Shown: positions 6,568 to 59,448 of the stretch, one piece after another
How the letters are laid out: the number at the start of each line of letters is the position of its first letter
Position numbering within the stretch: position 1 is the first letter of the stretch
From: a virus
Lineage: Duplodnaviria; Heunggongvirae; Uroviricota; Caudoviricetes
IMG/VR virus record: IMGVR_UViG_3300000439_000006
DNA: 64,000 nucleotides
Reading direction: 5' to 3' (one strand)
Program-made: the position numbers and the translations under genes
Notes under the pieces: model-generated
Database searches by the model: none
Told to the model about the DNA's origin: nothing
What the model saw: the letters and a program-made list of their open reading frames with translations, nothing else

Positions 6568-6579
6568 AACAAAAATAAT

Positions 6580-12500: not shown

Positions 12501-13290
12501 TAGTAATGTAGTGGCTAAGCTTCACTCTATGCAAAAGAGAATCAACGGATCATATAATAAGTTTGATAAAACATATATTGAGAAAACATCTCTTGGTAAG
12601 ATGGCTACGTTCTTTAGAAAGCACGTTATTCCATTGGGTGTTAATAGACTAGGTACATTAAGAGAAAACTACGAGAGTATGAGTACAGAAGAAGGATTTT
12701 ATATCACCTTCTGTAAAACTATGGGTAAAGATCTGATGCATTTCCGTCTACAAAATATTATAAACTGGGAAAACTATTCAGATAGAGAAAAGAGAGCTAT
12801 CAAAAGAACCCTAACAGATGTAGGTATTATTCTTACATGTATGGCTGCATACACACTTATAGGTGGGTATAACGAGAATGATAAGGATAAGATGAAGAAA
12901 CTAAGAAGAACATCTTGGGCCAATCAGGCTATGGTGTTTGAGTTGTTAAAACTTAAATCTGAAACAGAACAGTTTATACCGGCTCCTGATATGGGATTGA
13001 ACGAGTTGAAAAGACTTTATTCTAACCCATCGCTTATTCTGTCAGAAACAACTCAGATGTTCTACATGACTAGTTTGTTAGCTAAACAAGCTGCACACGC
13101 TATTCCTGGATCTAACTTCTTTGAGAACGATCTTTATTATCAAAAAGATACAGACCAAGGTGGTCTTGGAGATAAAGGAGATTCTAAACTACTACACGAA
13201 CTTGTCAGATCATTTAGTGGATATAGTGGTAAAACATTCCATCCAGCTGACGCGGTCAAATCATTTGAATATGGACAAAGAATCAAGTAA
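6580..13290 (+). CDS. Giant structural or ejected virion protein, function unknown (crAss-like large virion protein block)
   Basis: 2236-aa ORF starting 13 nt after the first giant ORF. No recognisable catalytic motif. Coding periodicity is strong, and only tiny spurious antisense ORFs lie inside it. Confidence 0.6.
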   Translation: MISCPNKNTKEWKELSAAIGAKQAMLAFIRNGDQIPSEAEARELLTNKGLLEGLRNMPMLSQETVFSTLQTNNLLTGSPIQDRGKTWYQLADREDVAEKLGQYTNEYGPVLEYDNGYVTVAQDSIDKWNEVAQLKSSKQMNATELAEEFLDRIGVPIQERSDVLARHGSNGVANMAEKMVEIQSGMKDVALPEEALHFFLEMLPQDHPALLEALDKIRNKSVYGETLEQYKNNPNYQVDGKPNFTKIKKEALAKELASRMKSKDHGWLSTLIDGILNFIKSLTLQKTAIEKLEDLFYSKDISLLNMNLNSSELYNQLADETKSFYEAQSANEAQKKTLDAILAHTAAINFDKSNHILTHHATVTSDGIVMRSVTQVLGSDFYSELDHMQTVETILDNFEQFFPDIIGEDSPKIKNYIDSVSGKKDEEELIKKYKAKVLLDYFTEKLLNDTTKETVEDLLKVLPAGIAKQIVQASQNKQKTLFGTAVHTIVESIIMDKEIDLDNLDPIIYQFMDKKTLMGLIYGKGLKDTGIRGLIQDLQKDGSVLMSEVEVGNGTVGGVIDLIAIRPDGTAEVYDFKTKFLREHKFNQADIKAEFEQVTRELSKFGIKKDPAILAGLADTRRSLNQKYTQQLSLYKNLLMEAGIRVGGLHIIGVPYRTNAEGKVTEVKAFVADPISYNDKIGSYLFNIADKSMDASKKSKKMTIEDERTKLLDDISNDSMKESFTKALTRLQQLYEHFKKNKNINTIYDLLTDKTSKTNRVDTQRDLVRTILNNFENFDDATKFLNVQKGFLELIDSSVGIIQTVAKEFDRLRKLKAVDEKSAVQRINELQKVNDFVTGYETMFKEMLGHLDSADLDNPLVKRLADMIGITTSIKSQYVDSIFGDVTDIMLSEFSPDDLENMRRLYTEDMIAAKQRGDEKLTKMYEERIKNLPSKESIAEVIKGNRGDVGWFWGKFVATISNPDIILSSVAKRLKAVLDRVRLMNKEFKDNLSVEFDKRAKLYGRGLDIKKINESLVYEAKEFNASTGKEMNVSYFKSEYHEKLYADYNKLKYNLKQAEEEKDVTKIKAAKLAIKNFEQKYFESNFTNEYFKLTSVLDKEVTHAGNKTTIRELIADIYDKINAVQRRGGYSDEDISSGNMTDEDLQERMDLFRQISSLKESNDENGLPKTGEALKIAEALKEYDKNKELLYDYVELTDLFNHKQQEMKLKYGEGSEEYEAWMAKNTRLAISDEYYTRRQQILDRIKEINNNDEASVKMDELYRELSVLAKPYKDADGYIRGQNMPADVAQKIKRIEAEIVTQRQNLDNFIMNGNTAAEKEEINQINFLKYNDKAYDRERLNELIREGKNRLQDRIDNDPDYAEKYDEMTDLLNELYKMGKTEITEYYYEELDKQRRNFAEANNVTYEEFMNNPEMYEDFEKSEWFINNHNIIDKIVYEDPETGETLGSKIRNPIWSWKRNMPIDKYITRKPANHFYQRTLKESYTDANGKEVLLKNTDNKDVQGRFKPKNAEQYKKEYGKEHPYLNKDFTSLRDKYTNGTASEKEKVDYENLLFIHKSMLDAQEGIEVSQRLGLAVPFLEKHGRERTIESRGNNFIEKGNSIWQGIKRSVTSTEQDVDQEGIHSSKTTEYSHLATMDNNEYKFVPVRYSTKGEADNASYDVWGGVLNYVAATNRKKELDQEMAMLNGLEKMLGDERNQPKSEANNLIANKIFKKYLPDMTQKINSGTNTRLEVLKSFVNSVMFNEESFKGYEVLGVNSQKVVNKMMRMISFTTLGFAPFNWMTNLLSGHVQNIVEAVGGNTITLNGYKDAKNMIYMGSSKYGTPIKDMMNDYSKVGNKSFWGQIMEYFDPIQGEVDDEYGHKTSFNKFANILHAGVYAGKMWGEWEIQMSTFIAYMLNNKVSDGKVVDRESFITKHMGDISDMSIKEISAKKLEAIKAFDALEHNLLDLFEMKDGKLVVKAQFKDVFELGSKDFSNVVAKLHSMQKRINGSYNKFDKTYIEKTSLGKMATFFRKHVIPLGVNRLGTLRENYESMSTEEGFYITFCKTMGKDLMHFRLQNIINWENYSDREKRAIKRTLTDVGIILTCMAAYTLIGGYNENDKDKMKKLRRTSWANQAMVFELLKLKSETEQFIPAPDMGLNELKRLYSNPSLILSETTQMFYMTSLLAKQAAHAIPGSNFFENDLYYQKDTDQGGLGDKGDSKLLHELVRSFSGYSGKTFHPADAVKSFEYGQRIK

Positions 13291-13296
13291 AAATAA

Positions 13297-13326
13297 AGGG
13301 AGTCACAAAATGACTCCCTTTTCATT
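13297..13326. terminator. Bidirectional intrinsic terminator at the plus-to-minus strand switch
   Basis: GGGAGTCA-caaaa-TGACTCCC hairpin with an A-run upstream and TTTTCATT downstream. It sits between convergent genes. Confidence 0.6.
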
Positions 13327-13771
13327 AGTCTGTCGTAAAAGGATGTTTCATAAGAAAACAATCCTGTGGTTGATCCATGTGTTTTTTAAAGCCGTTAATA
13401 TAGCTTTGTATATTAGCCGCTCCGACAGGGTTGTGGCTATGTACAGAACATGCCTTTAACATCACTTTGTTAGGCTGACAATATTCTTCTATAAGCCAAC
13501 GAGCACACTCGAGCCCGGTCTTTTCTTTGTACTCCTCATACTTGGGAAACTGATGACCTATGAGTCCCACCTGTGTGGCATAGTCATCCATATGTTCATC
13601 TGCAAGATCGTGGTCAAAAGATATAAGATCTGGTATCCCATTCTTCTTAATCCAATCTACAAACTGATCATAGTTTCTTACCACCTGCCATTCTTCATAG
13701 CCAGGTATAGTTGTTGTAGGCGTTCTATTATCGTCCAAGTAAAGGGCTTTTTTAAGCTTTGTTGCTTTCAT
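13325..13771 (-). CDS. Hypothetical protein
   Basis: 148-aa ORF. A DHD-containing acidic segment (ISFDHDLADEH) could be metal-binding. Confidence 0.5.
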   Translation of the reverse strand: MKATKLKKALYLDDNRTPTTTIPGYEEWQVVRNYDQFVDWIKKNGIPDLISFDHDLADEHMDDYATQVGLIGHQFPKYEEYKEKTGLECARWLIEEYCQPNKVMLKACSVHSHNPVGAANIQSYINGFKKHMDQPQDCFLMKHPFTTD

Positions 13772-19909: not shown

Positions 19910-21853
19910 TTAAAATAATGATAGTTGGGTACAGTCTCGACTCTTCACCTTTTCTATCTGATTTATCTCCTTGTAGATAGACTCTAAATAATAACTCATA
20001 TCTATGTTATAATCCTGGAAGGGTTTGTTTACAAGCTCATTCATTACAACCTGACGCCACTTACCCGCTTCAACCTGCATTTCTCTTCCATCGTTATGAC
20101 ACTTCAATAGTTTAGTACCTTGTTTAGATACATAATATCGTACAATCTTCTTAAGCTTGTGTTTTACTTCCTGGTTATTGATAAAGTCTCTACCTTCATA
20201 CCACCAGTCCCCTTTGGCTTTAACACCAGCACAATAATCAAAGATGTTTTGGTTAGCTGCTAAGAAGTCTTCTGGTTTTGTTCCGTGTATAAAATATGCG
20301 TGGATAGCTTTAGGGATAATCAAGAATGACTTATTCTTATGAAGAGTAGCCACAGCTTTCTTATCCAGATCTTCCCACTCAAATCTACCTTTACACTTAA
20401 CCTTTCCTTTCTTGTTAACAGCCATATAATTATTTACATCACCAATAATCATCTTTGTATACTCGTCATGTTCTAGCTGCAGCTTAGTTAGGAGCTCCCA
20501 CTGATGACATATCGCCATATACTTTGATGCATCATTCATAGGAATCATCATCTCCAAGCCATCTGTGTTCTGCATCAGCGGTCTGGCGTCCGGGATAGCT
20601 TCTAAAAGCATCTCGTACAACATACTTAGTAGTAGTTGACCATTCACAGTAATCTGCATAGTGAACTTAGGATCATATAGGAAACTATTCTCATCACCAG
20701 ATAACCCGTATGTAGAATTCAGGATGATCTTATACACATAGTTTTTAGGATCACTCTTAGGAATCTTCACTCTCTCATCAAAGAACCACTCATATTGTTC
20801 ACAAAAAGCTTTCTGATTAATATGTTCTGGATGAAAACCATTACGTATGGCTAAATTAGGATAATAACTTGTTACATCTGAGGTCATTATTACCCAGCCA
20901 GGTTTGGCTTCATATACGCCCATCTCTGCAGCACCATGTATTCCACCTAAGCCATAGTCTGTTTTAACACCGCGGTTGGTTACGGAATACTTAAACCCGT
21001 CCTTGGTAGATGTTATAACAGTCTTCTTAAAGAAGTCATGAAGCTTTTGGAAGTTTGGTGTTGTAAACTTAACGTAAGGAAGTATACAATCAGCTAAAAC
21101 TATATGTGTCCGAGGAGTACGCATGTCTCTGATATCATTCTTTTCCATCCCAAGTTTTTTACTCAGGAAGTGTAAGAACAACTCTTTGGATATGCGCGGC
21201 TCTGAAGCAGAGTAAAGATCTATTCCATAATCTTTTGTAAGAAGCTTACGTAAAGCGATCTGTTCTTTAGATAGGTTCAACACTTTCTTAGTGCTTCGTA
21301 CATCATTAATACAATAACTAACAATCTCTTGTAGTTGTTCTTTACTGGTCACCGGAGTGGTGTGATGATGAGGCATCTCTTCAACGTTAAACCAATCCAT
21401 GGAATATTGTATCCACTTAAGAGAAGACATCTTTGCTTTATTATCCCAGTGATTAAGCTTAAACAGATCTATCTGTTTTATCTTAAGTTTCTTAGGACTG
21501 AACTCCGCAAACGAGTTCGTGTTTTTACGGTTGATTACATCCTGTGCGTAGCCATAAAGCCAGGTAGCCACTTGTTCTCCAGTCATACCTGATAACATTT
21601 GTCTTTCTCTGATGATCTTTTCAGATATCTGAGCGTCAAAAGCTAGTCCGTTAAAGCTGATGTGCCACTGTCCTTTCTCTGCGCAAGTTTGTAAGAAAGC
21701 TAATAGTTTTGGAAAATCATTTTGATCTTTGTTAATGATAAAAACTTCAGCTATGTCATCGTCTTTGTAATGCTCGAACACTCCGATAAAGCAATTGACA
21801 AGTGTTTCGTAATCCATCACCCAATGGCATGCCTTAGATTGTTGTGTTTGCAT
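19910..21853 (-). CDS. Compact family-B DNA polymerase with 3'-5' exonuclease
   Basis: Exo I DYET, Exo II FNGLAFD and Exo III YCIND are present. Pol motif A is DVTSYYPN (DxxSLYPS), motif B is KIILNSTYG (KxxxNSxYG), and motif C is NTDG. 647 aa. Confidence 0.75.
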   Translation of the reverse strand: MQTQQSKACHWVMDYETLVNCFIGVFEHYKDDDIAEVFIINKDQNDFPKLLAFLQTCAEKGQWHISFNGLAFDAQISEKIIRERQMLSGMTGEQVATWLYGYAQDVINRKNTNSFAEFSPKKLKIKQIDLFKLNHWDNKAKMSSLKWIQYSMDWFNVEEMPHHHTTPVTSKEQLQEIVSYCINDVRSTKKVLNLSKEQIALRKLLTKDYGIDLYSASEPRISKELFLHFLSKKLGMEKNDIRDMRTPRTHIVLADCILPYVKFTTPNFQKLHDFFKKTVITSTKDGFKYSVTNRGVKTDYGLGGIHGAAEMGVYEAKPGWVIMTSDVTSYYPNLAIRNGFHPEHINQKAFCEQYEWFFDERVKIPKSDPKNYVYKIILNSTYGLSGDENSFLYDPKFTMQITVNGQLLLSMLYEMLLEAIPDARPLMQNTDGLEMMIPMNDASKYMAICHQWELLTKLQLEHDEYTKMIIGDVNNYMAVNKKGKVKCKGRFEWEDLDKKAVATLHKNKSFLIIPKAIHAYFIHGTKPEDFLAANQNIFDYCAGVKAKGDWWYEGRDFINNQEVKHKLKKIVRYYVSKQGTKLLKCHNDGREMQVEAGKWRQVVMNELVNKPFQDYNIDMSYYLESIYKEINQIEKVKSRDCTQLSLF

Positions 21854-22409
21854 CTTGTAAGTAGTTTATAGCTTTTTGAAGAAGTAGTATAGAATCTGCT
21901 AGTTTACCTATACCATTATTACAGTTGTTACATAAGAGACCTCTGACTTTACCTGTACTATGACAATGATCAACGTGAAGAGTACCTACTATTTCAGTAG
22001 ATTTATCACAGATTTTACAACAGTTATTTTGTTGACAAAGCATTTCTTCATAGCGATCATATGTCATATCAAGAATTCCTCGTTCTTTCCATATTTTTTC
22101 TTTGTTTTTCTTCCATCCATTGCGATGATAATAAGAGTTAAGATCTTTTATCTTGTGAAAAGTAGTAGTCGAAACACCATTTTTTCTTAGTCTACGCATA
22201 GCATTTATTCTATCTTTATTTTTGTGATAGTAGTCTAAAGCTTTACTATTATAAGAGACTTGATTATCCTTTCTATACTTTCTTTGTTTTACTGCATTAC
22301 ACTGGTTACAACTAGTTGTATAACCAGTATTGTTATATTGATCTTTACGAAACTCTTTTATAGCTTTTTCTATATTACAATTGTTGCATATTAATGTTAC
22401 ATTATCCAT
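21834..22409 (-). CDS. Endonuclease VII-like (HNH/His-Me) junction-resolving nuclease
   Basis: HVDHCHSTGKVRGLLCNNCN closely resembles the T4 endonuclease VII core (DHDH...GKVRGLLC..CN). An N-terminal CxxC is also present. Confidence 0.7.
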   Translation of the reverse strand: MDNVTLICNNCNIEKAIKEFRKDQYNNTGYTTSCNQCNAVKQRKYRKDNQVSYNSKALDYYHKNKDRINAMRRLRKNGVSTTTFHKIKDLNSYYHRNGWKKNKEKIWKERGILDMTYDRYEEMLCQQNNCCKICDKSTEIVGTLHVDHCHSTGKVRGLLCNNCNNGIGKLADSILLLQKAINYLQDANTTI

Positions 22410-24897: not shown

Positions 24898-25108
24898 TTT
24901 TTTTTGGTTTTTCCCAAACTCCTTTTTCTTCTAAAAATAGACGAATACGATCAGCTGTTCTTTTATCTGTAGTGAAAGCTTCAGTGAGTTCTATAAATCT
25001 ATAAACCTCATGGAGCTCTTTCTCATAATAATCAGCCTGATGTTTAGCTATCGGATTTTCTACGAATGCTGACATGGTTTCTATCATTTTGTGTTTTAAT
25101 GTTTCCAC
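24872..25108 (-). CDS. Hypothetical protein
   Basis: 78-aa ORF. Confidence 0.35.
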   Translation of the reverse strand: METLKHKMIETMSAFVENPIAKHQADYYEKELHEVYRFIELTEAFTTDKRTADRIRLFLEEKGVWEKPKKNEDESTST

Positions 25109-25800
25109 TTATACCCTCCAGCTGTTTTAGATAGCCCAGATAAACAATTTCTAATAGCTCCTCTATAAATACCTAATTGTTCTGAAGGTTCTTTTGTACC
25201 ACTCCATTTTTGTATAAAAGTTCCTTGTTTATCATATTGATAAATCGTTTTACTTTTACTTATACGAGAACTTTTTGGACAATAGGAAGTAATCTTATCA
25301 TATTTTACAAATCTCCATTGGTAACCACCTGCAGAAGGAGTTCGTCCATTTACCGCATTGTATATATCACAGGAGTATTGTTTTTTAGCTTTTGCTATAC
25401 TACTAAAAGATTGTATATAATCCCCAGATAAAGAGTATTGATGTACTTCTTTAGAGTTTTTATTAATAGATGCTTTTGTAGCTAAAGCTTTTATTTCAGA
25501 ATCATCTTTAACTATGTTACATAATATTCCTGTATTATTCCAAGAGTATCCATACTTAATAATCAACTCTGTTTCTTTTAATAAACATTCTTTTTCTATT
25601 TCAAACTCTTCAAGTATCTCCACTTTATAAGGAGTCTTATTAACAATATTCAACCAATAGTTATTTCTAGAATCTTTAGTATAAGCTCTATGATAGATAT
25701 TTCCTTTAGACTTTTTAGTACCTTTTCCAATGTAAAAAATAACATTGGTGTCTAGTCTTCTATGTTGATAAAGATAATATTTCTTGTTTATGTCTTCCAT
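25096..25800 (-). CDS. GIY-YIG homing endonuclease (freestanding)
   Basis: N-terminal YYLYQHRR...IFYIGKG is a GIY-YIG motif. C-terminal GGYQWRF and GGYKWKH are NUMOD-like DNA-binding repeats. Confidence 0.75.
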   Translation of the reverse strand: MEDINKKYYLYQHRRLDTNVIFYIGKGTKKSKGNIYHRAYTKDSRNNYWLNIVNKTPYKVEILEEFEIEKECLLKETELIIKYGYSWNNTGILCNIVKDDSEIKALATKASINKNSKEVHQYSLSGDYIQSFSSIAKAKKQYSCDIYNAVNGRTPSAGGYQWRFVKYDKITSYCPKSSRISKSKTIYQYDKQGTFIQKWSGTKEPSEQLGIYRGAIRNCLSGLSKTAGGYKWKH

Positions 25801-37628: not shown

Positions 37629-38692
37629 CAATATGTTATCCTATAGGCTCTTTATCCTATAGATCTATACCTTTATATATACGTATAGTTCAGACTATAT
37701 CATCACCAGATTTCTCTGGGCAGGACGCTCGTGTTAGCATTACCATCCTCAACATTAGTTGATAGGACTCGGCTATTAGTCGTTGAACCTTCAAGAGTAT
37801 TACTACTCAAGCTTGGCTTCTGATTGTCTTGTTTCACATCAAGAGTTTCCAGAAATTCATCCTGTTTAACGGGCGCTAGCTTAATCTCATAAGTCAGATT
37901 AGGAAAAAGATAAAGATTTTTTGATAAAAAAGTATATAACATAGAGATAGATGTAAATAAAATGGTTTCTTCTGTTTCTTTTATATGAACAGATATATTA
38001 TTATATTTAGTCATTATTCTACTTTTAGATTGTTTATCAACAGGAATAAAAGGCTCACCATGGTATCTAAATTGATAACCATGACTACTTAATCTTCCAT
38101 CATTTTGACAAACTTTAGATACTTTTCCTGTATTATTATTAGCATATTTTTGAGATGCTTTAGTAATAGATTCACAAGTATCTAGTAAGTTTCCTTCTAA
38201 ATTATACACATCTACTTTTTTACAAGGAGATCCTGTATGTTTTATTATACCTTTTTTTCTTTTATCTTTTAAAGTTTTAGCTATTTTAATAGCGGATTCC
38301 TTAGAAGGAGTATTTCTTATAACTTCTTTGGTTATGTTTATAGATGGATTTGTTAGATTAATATAAGATTGTTCTTTTTGAGTAAGAATTTTTTCTTCAC
38401 ATTGTTCTAATATATCACATCTAAAAGCTTTTAACCCATGTTTATTATATAGGTTTTGCATTATAGGATTGGTATGTTTATTGTTTAGTAGATGAGACTT
38501 GTGATCATGTAATCTACTATAAATATTAATACTACTTCCTATATAAAAATACTCTTTATCTTTTCCTTTTACTGTTATCTTGTAAATACCTGAAATCTTA
38601 TTCCAGTTTTTATGTATAATCATAATATATTAGTTTATATATATTATAAATATACAATGTTTACAAGACTTTACAAAAATTATTTTGTAGAA
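37629..38692 (-). mobile_element. Putative self-splicing (group I-like) intron carrying a GIY-YIG homing endonuclease gene; boundaries approximate
   Basis: The insertion splits the Walker-A codons: exon 1 ends ...LLVGNPGV and exon 2 begins AKTKT.... The proposed 5' splice site follows a U and the 3' splice site follows a G. The joined product reads GNPGVAKT. Confidence 0.45.
37703..38623 (-). CDS. GIY-YIG homing endonuclease (intron-encoded candidate)
   Basis: N-terminal ISGIYKITVKGKDKEYFYIGSS is a GIY-YIG motif. 306 aa. It lies entirely inside the interruption of the MoxR gene. Confidence 0.7.
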   Translation of the reverse strand: MIIHKNWNKISGIYKITVKGKDKEYFYIGSSINIYSRLHDHKSHLLNNKHTNPIMQNLYNKHGLKAFRCDILEQCEEKILTQKEQSYINLTNPSINITKEVIRNTPSKESAIKIAKTLKDKRKKGIIKHTGSPCKKVDVYNLEGNLLDTCESITKASQKYANNNTGKVSKVCQNDGRLSSHGYQFRYHGEPFIPVDKQSKSRIMTKYNNISVHIKETEETILFTSISMLYTFLSKNLYLFPNLTYEIKLAPVKQDEFLETLDVKQDNQKPSLSSNTLEGSTTNSRVLSTNVEDGNANTSVLPREIW

Positions 38693-39674: not shown

Positions 39675-40391
39675 TTACCAATTAATACAAAAGCTTGGTC
39701 CGTTCATACCTTTAATAAGCTTGTTACAAGCGTTAAAGACGTTATTACAGTCCCAATCTTTACCAGAATACCCAGCTGATGCGGGATGACTGGCTTTTAA
39801 TATGTGGTGATTTTGTCCTATTATATCTTCAAGCTCTTGAGCTTGTTTTCCTAATAAGATGAAAACCAATCCACTGTTTGTTAGATTCAGCATATCTATA
39901 GTGTAAGAAACGAAGTCTTTCCATATAGCTGTATGTGATCCAGGCTTGTCAATCTGACATGTTAAAGCGCTGTTTAATAACAACACTCCCTGATTAGCCC
40001 AGCGTTTCAGATTAGGATCCTGATTTGTTGGCCATTCCTCAAACACTGTCTTCTCCAGTTGTTTGAATATTTCTTTCAAACTTGGCTGAGGAATACCAGT
40101 GAAACCACATGAAAAAGCCATACCATCGGAAATATTTATTCCCGGATATGGATCCTGTCCCACTATTACAACCTTAAGTTGATCTAGAGGACATTCCTCG
40201 AACGCTCTAAAGACATACTTAAGAGGAGGAGTAAATCTCAATCCTTCTTGTCGTAAATCATAGAGCTTCTTAATAATCTTATCAAAGTCGGAACTTTGGA
40301 TAAATCCTTTTAGCTTATGGGCCCAGCCTGTGGGTTTAAGCTTTTCTATAAGTTTTTCTTTGATCTCTTCGAGATTTGGTTGTTCTATCAT
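39675..40391 (-). CDS. ung: Uracil-DNA glycosylase (family 1)
   Basis: VVIVGQDPYPG matches the UDG GQDPY(H) water-activating motif. LLLNSALT and C-terminal HPASAG motifs are also present. 238 aa. Confidence 0.75.
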   Translation of the reverse strand: MIEQPNLEEIKEKLIEKLKPTGWAHKLKGFIQSSDFDKIIKKLYDLRQEGLRFTPPLKYVFRAFEECPLDQLKVVIVGQDPYPGINISDGMAFSCGFTGIPQPSLKEIFKQLEKTVFEEWPTNQDPNLKRWANQGVLLLNSALTCQIDKPGSHTAIWKDFVSYTIDMLNLTNSGLVFILLGKQAQELEDIIGQNHHILKASHPASAGYSGKDWDCNNVFNACNKLIKGMNGPSFCINW

Positions 40392-40412
40392 ATCTTTGTA
40401 GAAATAATTATT

Positions 40413-40700
40413 ATGTCAAAAGTAACTACGATAAAGAAAGATGCTAAAGTGACCATCACATTAGGTACAGGTTTCATAGAGGTTTTACAGAAAACGTTAG
40501 TCAATCTGTCTTCAGGTAGAACACCTGAAGAAACAGCTAAGTTTTATAAACTAGCTACAGAACAAAATCATGCTGAGCTAGAACCCTGGATGTTTAACAT
40601 ACTTACAATAGCTTCTCTACTAAAAGAGATAGAAACTGAAGCTATTAAAAACAACCTCACTATAGAAGAGGACAGTTCGTCTGTACTCCCAGATCTATAG
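40413..40700 (+). CDS. Hypothetical protein; lone plus-strand gene embedded in the minus block (start at the internal MSKVTT)
   Basis: 95-aa ORF after trimming the hydrophobic, AT-codon N-terminal extension of the 127-aa ORF. Confidence 0.35.
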   Translation: MSKVTTIKKDAKVTITLGTGFIEVLQKTLVNLSSGRTPEETAKFYKLATEQNHAELEPWMFNILTIASLLKEIETEAIKNNLTIEEDSSSVLPDL

Positions 40701-41055
40701 CCGCCTGTATTGCTAGAGATAGTTCTTCTTTAGAACAATCACCGAATGATTTAGCTAGGAAGTATTCTTTACCGGATACTTCCCGGGCTAGACAAAGTCC
40801 GGCTTGATCTTTTATCATAAGCTTAAGATCTTCTACAGAGATTCCAGTATGTATTGACAGTGTTTTTAACATAGCGTGAATCTTAGCCAATTGTGGAAGG
40901 GTTCCATCATCATGAGTTGCTTCATAGAAGAACTCAACTATCTGTCCCTCCTCCACTTTGGAAACAAACAACTCGAATTGTTTTGAGAGCGCGAGAGATA
41001 TAAACTCTAAGCGTCCTCTTTTCTTTCGCATCTTTCCGTTAAAATATCCAGTCAT
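40660..41055 (-). CDS. Hypothetical protein
   Basis: 131-aa ORF. Confidence 0.45.
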   Translation of the reverse strand: MTGYFNGKMRKKRGRLEFISLALSKQFELFVSKVEEGQIVEFFYEATHDDGTLPQLAKIHAMLKTLSIHTGISVEDLKLMIKDQAGLCLAREVSGKEYFLAKSFGDCSKEELSLAIQAAIDLGVQTNCPLL

Positions 41056-42164
41056 ACATCGAAGTATTTTATTTTTGTTGAATCAAAGCCTTTTAAAGCT
41101 TCTTTTACCCATAGATCATCCACTGTATCTTTATAACACAATATGTGAATCACGGCCATGTCTTTAGGATTAAGTCTTAGAAACCTACCTATACGCTGTG
41201 CACTCTTACGTTCGTTTCCGTACGCATGTAGAATGATACCTGCGCGAAGGTTAGGAATATTTACACCCTCATTAAGCTGAAGAACACAAGAAGCCTGGTT
41301 AATATCTCCATTCTTTAGCTTCTCAAGATTGACATCACTGTCTTCATGATTAGCATGTATAGGATATGGAGAGAGTCTTTCAGCTTGTTCTTGTGTGTTA
41401 CAAAATATTAGACACTTTTCATCAATACTTAGGGCTAGTTTTTTAGCATAGGCTTCTTTTGTGGGCCCGCTCATTAAACTCTTCATGCGCATGATAGTAG
41501 CTATCTGTGAAGCTTTTTTACTAGTAGCAGCCAATATAGTGTCACTCCAATAGTTATAGTCGTTCACTTCAGACTTATAGAAATGCCCACCGTCTTTCTT
41601 CATCACCTTGATTGTCTTTGCTGAAGACAGCGACATTCTGTGAACGATGATACGATAGTCATTTAAAATCTGATCATCTATAGCGTCATCTGTTATATAC
41701 GTATATTTAACAGGACATGCGCTAGCCACCATCTTTCCTTTCTCACCGTTTTCATATCGTGGCGGAGTACCGGTTAGTCCCAGTATTCTTCCAGTGTAGA
41801 ATGTTAGAAAAGATAGATGTGAATAGAGAAGATTGTGAACCTCATCGAACACAACAACACTATAATCATTTGGATTTTGTTTCTTAAGAGAGATGTAAGT
41901 GACAAAGTCTATGTTATCCATGATGTCTTTTAGAACATTATGTTTAGCAGCTTCGTCTTTCCAGGTTTGGAATACAGATAGTTTAGGGCCCACAATCAAG
42001 ATTTTTTTACGAATCTTTTTTGTGAGCCATAAACTCTGTAAATATCTCAGTCCTACAAGAGTTTTACCAACTCCCATGGAGACTGCCGCAGTAGCTCTTG
42101 GGGTATCTAACATTATTTGTAAACATTCATTTTGAATATCTTCTCTAGTTTTTTTAATTTTCAC
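41052..42164 (-). CDS. SF2 helicase (DEAH-box ATPase)
   Basis: AAVSMGVGKT is Walker A. VVFDEVHN is a DEAH box. 370 aa. Confidence 0.6.
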   Translation of the reverse strand: MKIKKTREDIQNECLQIMLDTPRATAAVSMGVGKTLVGLRYLQSLWLTKKIRKKILIVGPKLSVFQTWKDEAAKHNVLKDIMDNIDFVTYISLKKQNPNDYSVVVFDEVHNLLYSHLSFLTFYTGRILGLTGTPPRYENGEKGKMVASACPVKYTYITDDAIDDQILNDYRIIVHRMSLSSAKTIKVMKKDGGHFYKSEVNDYNYWSDTILAATSKKASQIATIMRMKSLMSGPTKEAYAKKLALSIDEKCLIFCNTQEQAERLSPYPIHANHEDSDVNLEKLKNGDINQASCVLQLNEGVNIPNLRAGIILHAYGNERKSAQRIGRFLRLNPKDMAVIHILCYKDTVDDLWVKEALKGFDSTKIKYFDV

Positions 42165-42294
42165 TTTTTATTTACTTTTACAAATAAACCCATCGACAAA
42201 GCAATAGTACATCTTGGATTTTCTAAAGCTATCTCGAGAGACTCATTTTGTACTTGCTCGCGCTTATTACTCATAGTCTACAAATGTACGATTT

Positions 42295-44004
42295 TTATGC
42301 GGTTATACCAAGTCTTTGGCGGATAGCTGTAAGCGTTGTTTCGTTGTAGAACTTTCCATCTTTAAAGATGACCTGCAGCTTATTTTCTGAAGAGTTTACA
42401 TCGGCCCAAGACACCTGATCTTTAAGGATGTAATGTCCATCAGCATCTTGTGTAACCATTAATAAACCTTTAGCGCTTTTCTTAACACCATCATCAGTGA
42501 TAGGATCTTTAAAGATTTCTCTACCAACAAGTTTATAATCTGGAGACACACATGTTTCTTCAAAATCTCCACATATTTCCCCATTACCATGATCTGGACA
42601 ACCGTTATGAGCATTGATTCCACCCATAGAACATCTTCCTGTACGTTCTAAAACTTCTACATAAGTAGCTTTCATCGCAAAACCAAATGTATCTCTAGTG
42701 TTATACTGATAGGTAAATGAACCAACACCTAATACAATATTTGTTGAAGCAAATCCTTTAGCTTCTAAACGTTTACAGATTTCGTTTGCTCTATCAATAG
42801 TGATACTATCACCATAAATAGCTCCAATATGTGGATCTAGTACTTTATAACCTTGATCAGTTATAGTACCTCCAAATACTTCCCAAAGTAGTTCTATTAC
42901 TCCTTTATTTTTTGATAATCTTTCATAAGGGATATATCCATCTTTTGTTTTGGTATAAAAAGATTGATTTGTATCTGAAGATTCTTCAATAAAAATAAAT
43001 TTCTGTCCTTCTGGTAAGATATATGGTTTATCTATATCTTCTTTAGAAATTACACGATATGATTCATTTTCACCACAAATAATATCAACCGGATCTCCTG
43101 AGTCAGGGCGAATAACTAGTTTACCATCACGTGCTAAAATCTCTTCTTTCAACGTTACAATATGCTCAGTACATACTTTCCATAGATCCCAAGTATCTGA
43201 TACTATTGATAATATCCCCGTAGGATAGGTTTCTAATAGTCTACTAAAGGTTTCTATTTCATCATCTTTGCTTCCCGCACACATTACTGAGTGTTCAGTA
43301 GCATTAACAGATCCAACTACCACTCCAGTTTCTCCATAATACTTTCTAGCACCATGTATAACAGGAAGTGAGTCTGATCCTTTAAATGATGTAGCGTGAC
43401 CCAAACCTGAGCTGATTACAGCATCAACTGAATCCATTCCTCTCATAGAAAAGTCATGTCCTTGCCAGTCAATAAACCAAGCTTTTTCTTTATCAGTTTT
43501 TTCCATCCAACTAGTTAACACCTTACGATATGTACTAGCTATAGTAGCTGATGTAAGTGGTTTCCATAATAGATTAGAAATGATTGTTTCTAAATAATTA
43601 GTAACCCAATAAAAGTCTGAGTGAGTGTTATGTATACATAACACAGGCACTCTAATATCTACAAAGTTTCCTTCTTCTATAGCTCTGATTTCAACAGGTA
43701 AATACCCAAGATCATGTAAAGCTTCAAAATGAGAAACATCATAGTTTGTATTTAGATACATAGAAAGCTCTCTTTTCATTTCTCCACAAACTTCTTCTTT
43801 TGGTTTAGAGAAAAAATCATTATCAAAAGCTTCGTATATCTGTTTAACAATCATTTGTTGACCAAAAGATACAACTTTATCACACCCTTTTGGAGCGTAT
43901 TTATTACTTCTTGGAGTAAAATTAGAAAACACCAAACTTGTTCCTTCAGGATATTGTTGATGATGTCCTGTCTTATAACCATCTGTTAATAACAATGGAT
44001 TCAT
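42295..44004 (-). CDS. NAMPT-family phosphoribosyltransferase (NadV/Namat-like)
   Basis: N-terminal MNPLLLTDGYKTGHHQQYP matches the NAMPT N-terminus (N..L.TDSYK..H..QYP). 569 aa. Confidence 0.7.
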   Translation of the reverse strand: MNPLLLTDGYKTGHHQQYPEGTSLVFSNFTPRSNKYAPKGCDKVVSFGQQMIVKQIYEAFDNDFFSKPKEEVCGEMKRELSMYLNTNYDVSHFEALHDLGYLPVEIRAIEEGNFVDIRVPVLCIHNTHSDFYWVTNYLETIISNLLWKPLTSATIASTYRKVLTSWMEKTDKEKAWFIDWQGHDFSMRGMDSVDAVISSGLGHATSFKGSDSLPVIHGARKYYGETGVVVGSVNATEHSVMCAGSKDDEIETFSRLLETYPTGILSIVSDTWDLWKVCTEHIVTLKEEILARDGKLVIRPDSGDPVDIICGENESYRVISKEDIDKPYILPEGQKFIFIEESSDTNQSFYTKTKDGYIPYERLSKNKGVIELLWEVFGGTITDQGYKVLDPHIGAIYGDSITIDRANEICKRLEAKGFASTNIVLGVGSFTYQYNTRDTFGFAMKATYVEVLERTGRCSMGGINAHNGCPDHGNGEICGDFEETCVSPDYKLVGREIFKDPITDDGVKKSAKGLLMVTQDADGHYILKDQVSWADVNSSENKLQVIFKDGKFYNETTLTAIRQRLGITA

Positions 44005-44015
44005 ATTAAATATTT

Positions 44016-44483
44016 TTATGGTTTGTAAATAACAACTGTGACATCACAGTTTCTTAGTTCTTTTTCAATAATAGGTTTGATAAGATCCCAATTCCCCCCG
44101 GCCAAATGGGAGCCAATTTGAGGAAGACCAATGTGTTTTCCTCTAAAGATAGCGTTCATCTTTCTCATACAAAGCGTAAACGCTTCATAATCAAAAGGTT
44201 TTGTCTCTGTACTCCACTGATATTGTGTATAAGCGTTGACAACATACACTGCTTTAGCTAGATCTTTTCTAGATATTAAGACAACGTCTATTTGTCCAAG
44301 CTTGTTTATATCACCAGAGTATTTAACATCTTCCAGCTTGAATACATCACAACCAAAAGCTGCAGCCATCTGTGGAGCGATTCCTCGTTTCATCCTACAG
44401 AAACAGTTACATCCGTGGGCAATGACATCAAAGTGTCCTTCTTTAGCCAGCTTTATCAAATCACCTTCTATTTCGTTATACAT
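44016..44483 (-). CDS. Macro domain protein (ADP-ribose binding or processing)
   Basis: DVIAHGCNCFCRMKRGIAPQMAAAFG and GLPQIGSHLAGGNW resemble the macro-domain nucleotide-binding loops. 155 aa. Confidence 0.55.
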   Translation of the reverse strand: MYNEIEGDLIKLAKEGHFDVIAHGCNCFCRMKRGIAPQMAAAFGCDVFKLEDVKYSGDINKLGQIDVVLISRKDLAKAVYVVNAYTQYQWSTETKPFDYEAFTLCMRKMNAIFRGKHIGLPQIGSHLAGGNWDLIKPIIEKELRNCDVTVVIYKP

Positions 44484-45274
44484 GGTGTAAAAGGTATTGT
44501 GGTGATAAAACTATTACTATTGGTAAAACGATAACTATCAGATGTGATGATATGGTTTATATCGTGCTCTGAAAGAGTTTTAAATCCTTTAGAGAATATA
44601 CCATGAGTCACTATCAGTGTAAGAAACGCTGGTTTTATCTGACTGGCTATACCAACAAAGGTGCCGCCTCCGTCACATAAGTCATCAATGATGACACAAT
44701 TTTTTCCTGTACACTTTTCAGGCTCCAACACTTTAAGATCAATCTTTCCATTGCTTAAGTCTCTTGTTTTTGTACAATAGACAACATCAACGATGTTCTT
44801 GTTCCATTCTAAGTATTTTCCCACTTTCTTTACAGCGCCAGCATCTGGACAGATGAGTATAGAATCTGGTTTGTTATAAGCATCTACTAAAACCTTGTTT
44901 GAGATGTTTACACTGTTCTTGATGAGAGCTTTAGCTACATCAGAGTGCACATCATATAACACGACCTTTTCAAACTTACACATGTTGATCAACTCAGCAA
45001 CCACTTCCAGGTCACAAGAGTCTCCATCTTCCATCACTCTATCAAAGCGCGCGGCTATAAGATAGGGAATAACTAACACCTTCTTCTTAGCGAATAGGTG
45101 ATCCAACGCATTACTCACTTCGAGTAGATGCATCATATCTAAGCTGCTTCTTAAGGCGCAACTAACCTCTACTTCATCTCCCTCGTTTACGTCTATAACA
45201 TTGACATGAGGTTGATTGTCCGGAAAAAGCTTTAAGCTAACCCTTTGTTGGTGGTTCAGATCTATCTGTTTCAT
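44468..45274 (-). CDS. Ribose-phosphate pyrophosphokinase (Prs)-like enzyme, candidate ADP-ribose pyrophosphokinase (Adps)
   Basis: CVIIDDLCDGGGT is the PRPP-binding motif (DDxxDTGGT). 268 aa. Immediately upstream of the macro and NAMPT-like genes. Confidence 0.6.
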   Translation of the reverse strand: MKQIDLNHQQRVSLKLFPDNQPHVNVIDVNEGDEVEVSCALRSSLDMMHLLEVSNALDHLFAKKKVLVIPYLIAARFDRVMEDGDSCDLEVVAELINMCKFEKVVLYDVHSDVAKALIKNSVNISNKVLVDAYNKPDSILICPDAGAVKKVGKYLEWNKNIVDVVYCTKTRDLSNGKIDLKVLEPEKCTGKNCVIIDDLCDGGGTFVGIASQIKPAFLTLIVTHGIFSKGFKTLSEHDINHIITSDSYRFTNSNSFITTIPFTPCITK

Positions 45275-45282
45275 AACTTTTG

Positions 45283-45501
45283 TTAATGTTTTGTTTGTTC
45301 AATCATAGGAACCTCTGGATATATTATAAATTTACCATTGTCCCAATCAAAGCCTTTTCTTGCATTAACCACTCCAGTGACTTGAGTACCACCCATTCCA
45401 CCTTTGTTATTAGGAATACAAACCATAAGCTTTGAGTTTCTCTCATTCTGTTCTATAGCACGATCCACTTGTTCTTTTAATGCACCTAATGTTAGTATCA
45501 T
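45283..45501 (-). CDS. Hypothetical protein
   Basis: 72-aa ORF. Confidence 0.35.
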   Translation of the reverse strand: MILTLGALKEQVDRAIEQNERNSKLMVCIPNNKGGMGGTQVTGVVNARKGFDWDNGKFIIYPEVPMIEQTKH

Positions 45502-45503
45502 AG

Positions 45504-45776
45504 TTAAACAATATTAGTTAATGGATATGTGTTCTTCAAAGCTTCTTCTGTAAGTTCATTAAGATCTTCATCACTCATTGGTCTGTTTTCTACTCGTATT
45601 TGTTCTTTTACAGCAGCTTTAACATGCATCTGAGCAAACTCTATCATAGCTCTATACTGAACACCTTTTAAAACATCAGCTACAGTGGTTTGTTCTGTAG
45701 CAGGTGTATTCTTTTTCCAATCTTCTTTGATTGTAAAAAGGAAATCTTTAGCTGTTGGTATTTTAATACTCATCAT
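45504..45776 (-). CDS. Hypothetical protein
   Basis: 90-aa ORF. Confidence 0.4.
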   Translation of the reverse strand: MMSIKIPTAKDFLFTIKEDWKKNTPATEQTTVADVLKGVQYRAMIEFAQMHVKAAVKEQIRVENRPMSDEDLNELTEEALKNTYPLTNIV

Positions 45777-46002
45777 CTTCAGTTGTACTATCCCCTCTTA
45801 CTAGGTCTAGTTGATTACCAATTTCTTTTATTGTACCAGCTAAATGTTTAGCTAGGTTTTTAACTGCTTCTGGATCAAGAGAGCTTAACCACTCATCTTG
45901 CTTTTCTATAGGACAGTCTTCAAAGCACGTAGGCTTTCTTCTGTCTTCATCTTCAAATTTGTGGAAGATGTATATACCACTAAGGTTTCTTCTTTTAGAC
46001 AT
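45763..46002 (-). CDS. Hypothetical protein
   Basis: 79-aa ORF. Confidence 0.35.
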   Translation of the reverse strand: MSKRRNLSGIYIFHKFEDEDRRKPTCFEDCPIEKQDEWLSSLDPEAVKNLAKHLAGTIKEIGNQLDLVRGDSTTEDDEY

Positions 46003-46005
46003 GAT

Positions 46006-46257
46006 TTATAATGTTTTAATGTATTCTTTAATAAGTTCTTCTGTGGTAAAAAGAACATCTAGTAGTTGACCAAACTTTTTTGTCCATTTTATCTCACTAT
46101 TGATAACATAACCATAATAATGTTCAGCAACATACTCAGCAAAACCTTTCATGTGTTTTAAGGTTACTTCTAAATTTTCTAAAGCCTCACTTTCACAATT
46201 ATTATCTGTATGATAATCTTCAGCTATATAGTAATGTTCTTTTTCTATCTTATTCAT
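46006..46257 (-). CDS. Hypothetical protein
   Basis: 83-aa ORF. Confidence 0.35.
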   Translation of the reverse strand: MNKIEKEHYYIAEDYHTDNNCESEALENLEVTLKHMKGFAEYVAEHYYGYVINSEIKWTKKFGQLLDVLFTTEELIKEYIKTL

Positions 46258-46669
46258 CTTCTTTGTTTAAACGTGATTCACTAAGACCCAACTCTTTAGC
46301 TTCTTCAGGGTGAAGCTCGATGTATGTATGACAAGATCTACATGCAGCTAACCATGTACCAACCTTCAACATATATTCACCACGGCCTTTTTTATGGTGA
46401 ACATCAGTGGAAATACCTGTGCATCCTACAAGCTTAGCTTCACAATGAGGCTTAGCTACAAGGAAAGCTTCTCTAAGCTTACTGTATACAGATAGTTCTT
46501 CTTTCTTTTTCTTGCTAACTGGAGCTATTTTGGTAGTAGATCTATCAATACTTTTGGGAGGCTGGATGTTACTCCAGCACTCCTGACATAGTTTTTCTTT
46601 TTTCCCAAGAGACTTCCAGATGTGTTTGAGTTTGTTACAACCGGTACACATTTTAAGTTTACTTAACAT
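46250..46669 (-). CDS. Small HNH / Zn-ribbon nuclease-like protein
   Basis: N-terminal CTGCNK...CQEC; C-terminal DVHHKKGRG...CRSCH is HNH-like. Confidence 0.45.
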   Translation of the reverse strand: MLSKLKMCTGCNKLKHIWKSLGKKEKLCQECWSNIQPPKSIDRSTTKIAPVSKKKKEELSVYSKLREAFLVAKPHCEAKLVGCTGISTDVHHKKGRGEYMLKVGTWLAACRSCHTYIELHPEEAKELGLSESRLNKEDE

Positions 46670-47193
46670 ACGCCTAAATTAAAAAAGTTTACAGGAAGGA
46701 TTTTAGCTTCCACAAGTCTGGTGGCGATCATCACTCGTGTAATCTTAAGTTCTTTAAAAGACATTTTGTTCTTGATCTTGTTATCAACATCCTTCATTTC
46801 AGCTAAGTCTTTTACAACTCTACTGTTAGGAAACATCTTACTAAGAAAGCTATTAACACTTTCGTTAATGATTTCTTGTTTCCAAAGATTTAAAAGGATT
46901 TGTGTCTTATTAAACAAGTCAGTTATCTTTCTCTTTTTAGCTGGAGATAACTCCGCTAATTCTGATTCAGAATAACTACTCAACCCATAAACAACCTGAT
47001 TATAAAGTTGTTGTTGTGTTTTATTAAAGCTTTTAAACTCTAATTGTTGATACTTAGACACGCCCTTAGCTGGATAGTGTTTATTGTTTGGGTTGGTTTT
47101 GTTATCATAATACATCCACTGATGTTTCTGTGAATCTGCGTAACATATAAGTACGCCTGTAGCCGAAGCCGAGATTGTTTTGTTCGGATTCAT
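46663..47193 (-). CDS. Hypothetical protein
   Basis: 176-aa ORF. Confidence 0.45.
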   Translation of the reverse strand: MNPNKTISASATGVLICYADSQKHQWMYYDNKTNPNNKHYPAKGVSKYQQLEFKSFNKTQQQLYNQVVYGLSSYSESELAELSPAKKRKITDLFNKTQILLNLWKQEIINESVNSFLSKMFPNSRVVKDLAEMKDVDNKIKNKMSFKELKITRVMIATRLVEAKILPVNFFNLGVC

Positions 47194-47220
47194 AATATTC
47201 TTTTTATAATGTGTGAGAAA

Positions 47221-47253
47221 TAAAAAGGCTCTATGTGTTATAGAGCCTTTTTC
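47221..47253. terminator. Bidirectional intrinsic terminator
   Basis: AAAAAGGCTCTAT-gtgt-TATAGAGCCTTTTT, a perfect hairpin flanked by an A-run and a T-run. Confidence 0.6.
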
Positions 47254-47268
47254 AAATAAATAATACGC

Positions 47269-47733
47269 CTATAGATCTGCGTCAATGTTCTTACTTAAAA
47301 GACTCATTGTTTTAGATGCTGATTGGGCTTGTTTTATCTCGGTTGAGTTATCATGCGCGATAAACTCATCTCGAGCGTCTTCGTTAGGTGTAAAGTAACA
47401 TTCTCTATAAATCGGTTGTCCATCAATAGTACACACTACACCAGTATCTCCAGCCATCTTAAGATTTTTCTCTGGAGAGTCTGGTTGTGGGGGTATCAAT
47501 GACTCTACAACTACGATTTTACCGTTCACTTTATCACCATCTTTATAGTTACACTCTAAAAGATCTTCAATTTTACCTTTGATAAAAGCTGATCTTTTAG
47601 CTTTGCGTAACCACCCCCTGTCATTTATAACAAGAAGTATTTGTTCTACGCGGATAGACCCATACTCGGGCTTATTAGGATATACATTAATAATGCTTCC
47701 CTGTTTGTCCGCTTTAATTACAACTTTACTCAT
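47269..47733 (-). CDS. Hypothetical protein
   Basis: 154-aa ORF. Confidence 0.45.
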   Translation of the reverse strand: MSKVVIKADKQGSIINVYPNKPEYGSIRVEQILLVINDRGWLRKAKRSAFIKGKIEDLLECNYKDGDKVNGKIVVVESLIPPQPDSPEKNLKMAGDTGVVCTIDGQPIYRECYFTPNEDARDEFIAHDNSTEIKQAQSASKTMSLLSKNIDADL

Positions 47734-47740
47734 AATTTAC

Positions 47741-47772
47741 AAAGCTTGGTTAATAAAAAAGCCCCAGAGACT
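47741..47772 (-). terminator. Intrinsic terminator (minus strand)
   Basis: An AGCCCC...GGGGCT hairpin is followed on the minus strand by TTTTTTATTA. Confidence 0.55.
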
Positions 47773-47785
47773 TCCGGGGCTTGTG

Positions 47786-59292: not shown

Positions 59293-59374
59293 TATACAAT
59301 CGTGTACACATAATATGTAGACATCGTATAGTGTCTATCAACCAGGTTTCTTTAAGCTATCCCCGTATATTATG

Positions 59375-59448
59375 CTCTCCTGAATGGATTTGAACCAATG
59401 ACCTACTCCTTACAAAAGAAGCGCTCTAACCAACTGAGCTACAGGAGA
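59375..59448 (-). tRNA. tRNA (Thr/UGU-like anticodon loop TTTGTAA; weak anticodon stem)
   Basis: Minus strand reads TCTCCTG-TA-GCTC-AGTTGGTTA-GAGC-G-CTTCT-TTTGTAA-GGAGT-AGGTC-ATTGG-TTCAAAT-CCATT-CAGGAGA-G. The acceptor stem is a perfect 7 bp. The T-stem has one U-U mismatch. Confidence 0.55.

Follow-up and report, generated by a model that had tools for sequence, protein, structure and literature searches.

We analysed a 64,000-nt stretch of DNA, referred to here as the window, from an uncultured phage of the class Caudoviricetes (IMG/VR record IMGVR_UViG_3300000439_000006). The window covers 64 kb of a phage genome of ~129 kb, and all negative results given for it are bounded by that span. 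Its positions 42,295 to 45,274 hold three genes, which we refer to as adps, adpp and namat (Table 1). An earlier note on this DNA, made from the sequence alone, had described three co-directional, nearly abutting genes coding for a Prs homolog with the motif IIDDLCDGGGT, a macro-domain protein and a 569-aa NAMPT homolog. The open reading frame (ORF) listing bears this out: all three ORFs are intact, full length and have exactly the limits given in that note, and they are encoded on the minus strand, which the note had left unstated. The adps and adpp frames overlap by 16 nt and adpp is separated from namat by an 11-nt spacer, which places namat two genes downstream of adps on the same strand with adpp between them. 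The proteins contain the Pfam domains Pribosyltran_N/Pribosyltran (Prs-like protein), Macro (macro-domain protein, weak match) and NAMPT_N/NAPRTase (NAMPT-like protein), and fall into phrog_619 (3e-64), phrog_335 'phosphatase' (8e-45) and phrog_448 (4e-185), respectively. We propose, with a probability of roughly 0.8, that the trio constitutes a NARP1-AP operon, in which NAD+ reconstitution pathway 1 (NARP1) comes with an associated phosphatase.

NARP1 has been defined as the enzyme pair Adps and Namat (Osterman et al. 2024), and structures and diagnostic features have been described in two 2026 Nucleic Acids Research papers for Namat (PMC12774641) and Adps (PMC13586617). A January 2026 preprint from the laboratory of Osterman et al. 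2024 reports a macro-domain gene in the operon of 15% of NARP1 phages (bioRxiv 10.64898/2026.01.28.702374). According to this preprint, the aRES (RES-domain) defence splits NAD+ into nicotinamide and ADP-ribose (ADPR)-1''-phosphate, a product that cannot be used by NARP1, and two-gene NARP1 operons cannot overcome aRES (10.64898/2026.01.28.702374). The macro protein, Adpp, converts ADPR-1''-phosphate to ADPR, and the Adps-Adpp-Namat operon of Vibrio phage Gary (NARP1-AP) defeats aRES, for which all three genes are needed (10.64898/2026.01.28.702374). The preprint counts an operon as NARP1-AP when a macro-domain protein is encoded at most two genes away from the NARP1 pair (10.64898/2026.01.28.702374); in the window, the macro gene has adps on one side and namat on the other. 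The view of the earlier note that a macro domain is not part of the described NARP1 is therefore outdated, whereas its suggestion that this domain extends the range to phosphorylated ADPR agrees with the sequence comparison to the Adpp of NARP1-AP and with the gene order in Gary.

The NAMPT-like protein starts with MNPLLLTDGYKTGHHQQYP. In a search of all PDB sequences, its best matches are 9W5X and 9W5W (490 bits), which are the SPbetaL1 Namat crystal structures according to the data-availability statement of PMC12774641. By comparison, the true Nampts of Xanthomonas and human reach 196 bits and ~180 bits, respectively, and the Namat proteins of Bas63, Gary and ICP1 belong to the same PHROG family as the window protein. 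A helix of the selectivity clamp with the consensus GS-X-Phi1-X-Phi2-X-Phi3-TRD, in which X is aromatic, is present in Namat and absent from Nampt (PMC12774641). The window protein contains an exact match to this consensus, GSFTYQYNTRD, which is identical to residues G390-D400 of SPbetaL1 Namat. The clamp loop gives a stacking residue, which is either an Arg or follows a Lys/Tyr (PMC12774641). At this position the window protein has Lys35-Tyr36, with K35 aligned to SPbetaL1 R40, and a Lys followed by an aromatic residue is also found in the Namat proteins of Bas63 (K-W) and ICP1 (K-Y); the K35-Y36 loop would be expected to provide the stacking interaction. The core residues D8, Y10, F185, R188, D211, H238, R299 and D301 are all kept (SPbetaL1 D13, Y15, F189, R192, D215, H245, R306 and D308), H238 being the predicted catalytic histidine. 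Judged by these features, the NAMPT-like protein is a Namat, which, by analogy with its homologues, would be expected to favour ADPR pyrophosphate (ADPR-PP) over phosphoribosyl pyrophosphate (PRPP) and to form NAD+ directly.

Alignment with the reference Namats revealed two insertions in the window protein. The first one is located in a region that is also enlarged in Bas63 and Gary Namat, both validated, and in Thalassa Namat, but absent from ICP1 and SPbetaL1. The second one, LERTGRCSMGGINAHNGCPDHGNGEICGDFEETCVSPDYKLV, is ~42 aa long, contains four Cys residues and lies at the tip of the beta14-beta15 hairpin; it is missing from every reference Namat and also from two relatives with 68% identity (L008 and L009). 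From the alignments, the hairpin insertion site looks like a hypervariable surface hotspot. The four-Cys insertion could act as a module that depends on a metal or on the redox state, or it could present an arms-race surface, for example for the escape from a host factor by which Namat is bound or sensed. Among 80 Namat relatives from IMG/VR (L016-L095), the segment from KAT to FKDP, which comprises the hairpin and its flanks, spans 11-61 residues, and in six of these relatives the hairpin has unrelated insertions that contain 4-5 Cys.

The Prs-like protein was compared with the experimentally studied Adps proteins of Bas63, ICP1 and Gary, with the Thalassa protein, whose operon is ~92% identical to the Gary operon at the DNA level, and with E. 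coli Prs. Membership in phrog_619 was dropped as a discriminator between Adps and Prs, as the score of E. coli Prs (193 bits) is too close to that of the window protein (218 bits), with validated Adps proteins at 278-333 bits. Due to this poor separation, we used the Prs model TIGR01251 with controls and a custom hidden Markov model (HMM) of Adps. With TIGR01251, which has a cut-off of 113 bits, the window protein scores 87 bits, validated Adps proteins 98-138 bits and E. coli Prs 423 bits, and on all NCBIfam Prs equivalog models the window protein remains far under the cut-off. The HMM built from the three validated Adps sequences gives 138 bits for the window protein as compared to 84 bits for E. 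coli Prs and 77 bits for an unverified human PRPS1 sequence, while a Prs HMM gives the window protein just 49 bits. BLASTP points in the same direction (Adps 94-141 bits, Prs 43-55 bits), as does the alignment, in which the window protein is 30-33% identical to Adps sequences and 24% identical to E. coli Prs.

The motif pointed out in the earlier note, IIDDLCDGGGT, covers aa 195-205 of the Prs-like protein and overlaps the pyrophosphate (PP) loop, DDLCDGGGTF. The remodelled PP loop of Adps forms the ATP-donor site and is conserved among Adps proteins (ICP1 C215-S220 and F221; PMC13586617). Loop residues C200, G202, T205 and F206 are as in ICP1 and Bas63, whereas the loop of E. coli Prs reads DDMIDTGGTL. 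At the positions that differ between Adps and Prs, C200, G202, F206 and I178 side with Adps, and E. coli Prs has I, T, L and Q, respectively. The residue corresponding to ICP1 F223 is a Gly in the window protein and a Glu in Bas63. In ICP1 Adps, the catalytic Lys185 and the ADPR contacts F18, R87, F92, H121, D161, D212 and D213 have been described, and the K185A substitution abolishes the formation of ADPR-PP (PMC13586617). Mapping by alignment to the ICP1 gene showed that the highlighted residues F17, R76, H110, D144, K169, D197, D198 and D201 are kept. The housekeeping Prs/PRPS enzymes (TIGR01251) have the same fold and share Arg76, His110, Asp144, Lys169 and Asp197/198 with the window protein. 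The presence of Lys169 and of the ADPR-contact residues therefore speaks for competence rather than specificity, since the Lys and most of the contacts are also common to Prs. On the other hand, the window protein differs from E. coli Prs not only in its score below the Prs cut-off and its altered PP loop, but also in length: with 268 aa as compared to 315 aa it is 47 residues shorter, and it lacks the C-terminal alpha11-alpha12 region of Prs, the alignment stopping before this segment. The comparison of the protein with Prs and Adps that the earlier note had suggested came out on the Adps side, the positions that differ between the two following Adps and a small neighbour-joining tree, in which Prs is represented by two sequences only and which is not a full phylogeny, grouping the protein with Adps. 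In all these comparisons the Prs-like protein behaves like an Adps and, by analogy with its homologues, it would convert ADPR and ATP to ADPR-PP. Together with the Namat score and clamp motif, these results agree with the proposal of the earlier note that the locus encodes an Adps and Namat pair of the NARP1 type, and we consider this assignment of the NARP1 core highly probable.

The macro-domain protein contains HGCNCFCRMKRGIAPQ at aa 23-38 and matches the Pfam family Macro (PF01661) with an E-value of 0.004 and 17.6 bits, which is under the 22-bit cut-off. The validated Adpp of Gary falls into the same PHROG family (1e-49). Over the full length, the window protein is 39% identical to Gary Adpp and 41% identical to Thalassa Adpp (MAFFT); the corresponding BLASTP values are 36% (1e-26) and 38% (7e-29). 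An alignment of seven homologues, which include the Gary and Thalassa proteins, revealed two conserved blocks, AHxCNCFCRMxRGIAP and GLPxIGxxLAGGxW, and the window protein keeps the invariant residues of both (Table 1). The closest homologue from a cultured phage is encoded by Cellulophaga phage phi17:2 (43.5% identity, above Gary Adpp), while the closest macro relatives in IMG/VR (61-73% identity), from L008, L009 and L010, have Adps and Namat genes on their flanks and are thus linked to NARP1. A profile of the seven-member family detects homology to the macro domains of the TARG1/OARD1, SCO6735, BT1257, DarG and Poa1p class: among solved structures, it matches BT1257 at 4e-16, SCO6735 at 1e-10, TARG1 at 2e-10 and DarG at 9e-6, and the Poa1p chains 6LFU and 6LFQ at 2e-4 to 4e-3, the latter over the N-terminal ~50 residues only. 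A phosphate-loop region, G-x-G-L-A-G-G, is common to the window protein, BT1257 and SCO6735. A Poa1p-like relationship of Adpp was reported by HHpred in the preprint (10.64898/2026.01.28.702374). We consider it probable, though with less confidence than for the NARP1 core, that the macro protein acts as an ADPR-1''-phosphate phosphatase. This assignment rests on the operon context and on the moderate identity to the tested Gary Adpp, as the macro family is not specific to NARP1. The family matches 2474 phage records, of which two were checked directly. In these two, the macro genes of phi17:2 (L014 302-880) and Salmonella phage 7-11 (L015 3986-4486, 'Tk.4') have no adjacent Adps or Namat gene, and the NARP1-AP model leaves the role of such stand-alone copies unexplained.

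Table 1. Features of the adps-adpp-namat locus and of its surroundings, in positions of the window
Feature	Position	Strand	Basis or remark
adps, Prs-like, ADP-ribose pyrophosphokinase (by sequence), 268 aa	44468..45274	-	ORF listing
adpp, macro-domain protein, putative ADPR-1''-phosphate phosphatase, 155 aa	44016..44483	-	ORF listing
namat, NAMPT-like, nicotinamide ADP-ribose transferase (by sequence), 569 aa	42295..44004	-	ORF listing
Adps Lys169	44768..44770	-	alignment mapping to ICP1 catalytic Lys185
Adps PP loop DDLCDGGGTF, aa 197-206	44657..44686	-	aligned to ICP1 Adps D212-F221
Macro motif AHGCNCFCRMKRGIAP, aa 22-37	44373..44420	-	H23, C25, N26, C27, M31, G34, I35, A36 invariant in seven homologues
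Macro motif GLPQIGSHLAGGNWD, aa 119-133	44085..44129	-	G119, P121, I123, G124, L127, A128, G129, G130 invariant
Namat selectivity-clamp loop Lys35-Tyr36	43897..43902	-	alignment with SPbetaL1
Namat predicted catalytic His238	43291..43293	-	alignment mapping to SPbetaL1 H245
Namat variable insertion 1, aa 316-359	42928..43059	-	alignment of reference Namats
Namat selectivity-clamp helix motif, aa 428-438	42691..42723	-	exact consensus match
Namat insertion 2, four Cys, aa 452-493	42526..42651	-	alignment
Decayed duplicate of downstream helicase 5' end, 37-codon ORF, at the 3' edge of the cassette	42161..42274	-	15/26 residues match helicase N-terminus
Homing-endonuclease-type genes (GIY-YIG, NUMOD, Endonuclease VII, HNH)	37703-38623, 25096-25800, 21834-22409, 46250-46669	-	domain matches
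tRNA-Ile (GAT) and tRNA-Tyr (GTA) genes	52108-52180; 59374-59448	-	phage-encoded

The gene content, gene order and family membership of the trio, which are shown here together with its diagnostic residues, are those of the Gary operon (Adps gp181, Adpp KNV71_gp137 and Namat gp183). The Gary proteins belong to the same three PHROGs (619, 335 and 448), are encoded in the order Adps-macro-Namat with overlapping adps and adpp frames, and share the macro motifs; the same gene order is found in the Thalassa operon. The two systems differ in that the window and Gary proteins are only 32-39% identical, that the window Namat has the four-Cys insertion, which Gary Namat lacks, and that C200 of the window Adps is a Ser in Gary. 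The window phage itself is unrelated to Gary, its family B DNA polymerase being ~34% identical to the closest polymerases of cultured phages. Moreover, the Gary system has been tested experimentally, whereas the window system is known from its sequence. Compared to the two-gene NARP1 of SPbetaL1, Bas63 and ICP1 (NrsAB), the window operon has the same Namat clamp motif as SPbetaL1, with 490 bits to its crystal structure, and the same Adps PP-loop pattern (DDxCDG...F) as ICP1 and Bas63, but it contains a macro gene, which those operons lack (the Bas63 and ICP1 operons were inspected directly). NARP2, formed in KVP40 by a Nampt with an NMNAT/Nudix protein, and NARP3, made up of a PnuC-like transporter and a NadR-like enzyme, likewise serve to restore NAD+ during infection. 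NARP2 uses a Nampt that is homologous to Namat, but it runs via PRPP and nicotinamide mononucleotide (NMN) and needs an NMNAT, and NARP3 needs both of its partners; a Pfam scan of all other window ORFs found none of these partners at E <= 1e-3 (CTP_transf_like, NadR, Nudix and PnuC).

The enzyme activities and the anti-defence phenotype of the trio can be predicted by analogy with the studied systems. A bacterial defence would cleave NAD+ to nicotinamide and ADPR. Adps would then attach the beta-gamma pyrophosphate of ATP to the terminal ADPR ribose, yielding ADPR-PP and AMP, and Namat would couple ADPR-PP and nicotinamide directly to NAD+. If the defence is an aRES-type NAD+ phosphorylase, the product ADPR-1''-phosphate would be unusable by Adps, and Adpp would strip off the phosphate to give ADPR, which would be fed to Adps and Namat. 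For defences that release plain ADPR (TIR, SIR2, SEFIR), the Adps and Namat steps should suffice.

Several points weigh against a NARP1-AP operon. The evidence presented here consists of sequence comparisons and covers 64 kb of the ~129-kb genome. The window Adps is divergent, with only ~30-34% identity to the validated Adps proteins, phrog_619 does not cleanly separate it from E. coli Prs, and the residue corresponding to ICP1 F92 is Met81, although the validated Bas63 Adps also has a Met at this position. As for the macro protein, the de-ADP-ribosylases SCO6735 and TARG1 outscore Poa1p in the sequence profile, the family is not NARP1-specific, as the copies of phi17:2 and Salmonella phage 7-11 illustrate, and the text of the preprint names no mutated Adpp residues, so that no catalytic residues could be mapped onto the window protein.

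The most likely alternative is that the NARP1 core is real, while the macro protein is mainly an ADP-ribosyl hydrolase or an O-acetyl-ADPR deacetylase. In this case, it would strip ADP-ribose from proteins or nucleic acids, for example after the action of DarT-like or other ADP-ribosylating defences, or act on further ADPR derivatives, and might still supply NARP1 with ADPR. This would be in line with the profile search, in which BT1257, SCO6735, TARG1/OARD1 and DarG all rank above Poa1p, with a weak NCBIfam DarG match of the window protein (38 bits, far under the 250-bit cut-off) and with the many phage members of the family without adjacent NARP1 genes. In TARG1, Asp125 is catalytic and forms a Lys/Asp dyad with K84. 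The HMMER alignment of the family to TARG1 stops short of the catalytic-Lys position, and the search for a TARG1/DarG-type dyad did not find its Asp, the column aligned to D125 being occupied by Ala128, which is invariant in the family. The only family member that has been tested biochemically, Gary Adpp, is an ADPR-1''-phosphate phosphatase and needed for the anti-aRES activity (10.64898/2026.01.28.702374). Furthermore, the window gene is flanked by adps and namat, and its frame overlaps that of adps, as in Gary. We therefore consider a mainly hydrolytic or deacetylating role unlikely, bearing in mind that the two kinds of activity need not be exclusive, since macro domains are often promiscuous.

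A related alternative is that the operon could be a functional variant of NARP1-AP, in which the macro protein salvages ADPR from wider sources such as O-acetyl-ADPR or ADP-ribosylated macromolecules. This idea is based on the observation that stand-alone phage macro domains resemble the macro protein more closely than Gary Adpp does. Taken as one reading together with the four-Cys module or arms-race surface of Namat proposed above, it appears similarly doubtful.

A very unlikely alternative is ordinary PRPP-dependent salvage, which the earlier note had kept as a fallback. Here, a Prs would produce PRPP, a NadV/Nampt would form NMN and an NMNAT, whether from another part of the phage genome or from the host, would complete a NARP2-like route. 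Both enzymes indeed belong to the Prs and Nampt superfamilies, public records label their homologues as ribose-phosphate pyrophosphokinase and nicotinamide phosphoribosyltransferase, Namat keeps some PRPP-to-NMN activity in vitro (PMC12774641) and the inspected sequence is half of the genome. However, the presence of the Namat-only motif, the 490-bit Namat score as compared to at most 196 bits for Nampts, and a Prs-like protein with an Adps-type PP loop that stays below the cut-offs of all NCBIfam Prs models and has scores similar to those of validated Adps proteins disfavour this explanation. The gene neighbourhood also argues against it: Namat adjoins 97% of the Adps-clade genes and is rarely found next to bacterial prs genes (Osterman et al. 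2024), and a Pfam scan of the other window ORFs, run as concatenated pseudo-proteins, found no NMNAT, Nudix, NadR, PnuC, RyR or SIR2 domain. A RyDEP was likewise not found in the 64-kb window. Finally, the idea that the genes are remnants that have decayed or do not function, or that their adjacency is meaningless, could appeal to the decayed helicase duplicate at the edge of the cassette, a sign of past recombination, and to the two unusual insertions in Namat, but it is hardly credible given three intact, full-length ORFs with every mapped catalytic residue kept, an identical Namat encoded on an independent metagenome contig from ENA (128,725 bp), the retention of the trio in diverged relatives, and the placement of both insertions in loops that are also variable among validated Namats or IMG/VR relatives.

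We therefore regard the operon as a new, divergent example of a described and tested system, not as a new kind of system, and its macro gene as already explained in the literature; the locus raises no new question. It adds an uncultured, deeply divergent ~129-kb phage to the carriers of NARP1-AP, and supports the view that NAD+ phosphorolysis of the aRES type and the response of phages to it are found far outside the Vibrio and enterobacterial phages studied so far. Diverged sequences that keep the Namat clamp, the PP loop of Adps and the loops of Adpp should help to refine the rules for annotation, as the three genes still go by the labels Prs, phosphatase and NadV in public records. In records such as L001, L003 and L005, Adps appears as 'ribose-phosphate pyrophosphokinase', Adpp as 'phosphatase' or 'hypothetical protein' and Namat as 'nicotinamide/nicotinate phosphoribosyltransferase'. 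The window Namat itself matches the NCBIfam model PRK09198 at 2e-155 and with 518 bits passes its 405-bit equivalog cut-off. Automatic annotation thus hides NARP1 systems, due to the mislabelling of the trio in the records and to this cut-off being passed by a Namat.

The Adps-macro-Namat trio recurs in four IMG/VR relatives (L008, L009, L010 and L029), two of which, L010 and L029, have the compact gene order seen in the window. Among the 80 loci with a Namat relative, 15 have a macro gene at a distance of <=3 kb, in line with the published 15%. No close relative of the region is known from a cultured phage, as a Megablast search of a 3.6-kb region against 50,697 phage records returned just a 230-nt patch, located in a Namat-type gene of a Leptolyngbya phage. 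In L010 (IMGVR_UViG_3300034283_001962, 4535-7841), namat is split into three pieces by gaps of ~850 and ~720 nt, with a 204-aa ORF inside one of the gaps and Adps and Adpp genes directly upstream. The gaps could be introns or homing-endonuclease insertions.

In the window, the three genes sit inside a long co-directional array on the minus strand. Promoter and terminator scans found site numbers no higher than in shuffled sequence, and operon boundaries can therefore not be claimed. Rfam had no match in window positions 40000-48000, and repeat searches around the cassette found nothing beyond short matches at chance level. Downstream of namat, a 130-nt spacer between its stop codon and a ResIII/SNF2-like helicase gene (41052..42164) holds the 37-codon ORF listed in Table 1; this helicase duplicate is probably a recombination scar left by the acquisition or exchange of the cassette. 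Overall, the window corresponds to a part of a novel phage genome that is devoted to replication and nucleotide metabolism, with genes for a family B DNA polymerase, a ligase, a primase, a DnaB-like helicase, a nuclease, a dCTP deaminase, a uracil-DNA glycosylase and homing endonucleases. At its start lie two giant adjacent ORFs on the plus strand, 1-6567 (2188 aa, cut by the window start) and 6580-13290 (2236 aa), for which neither Pfam nor, at E <= 1e-3, the PHROGs gave a match. They are followed on the minus strand by a 148-aa ORF (13325-13771), which adjoins the genes for the dCTP deaminase and a deoxynucleoside monophosphate kinase and matches the Pfam family cREC_REC (PF20274), 'cyclic-phosphate processing receiver domain', with 72 bits.

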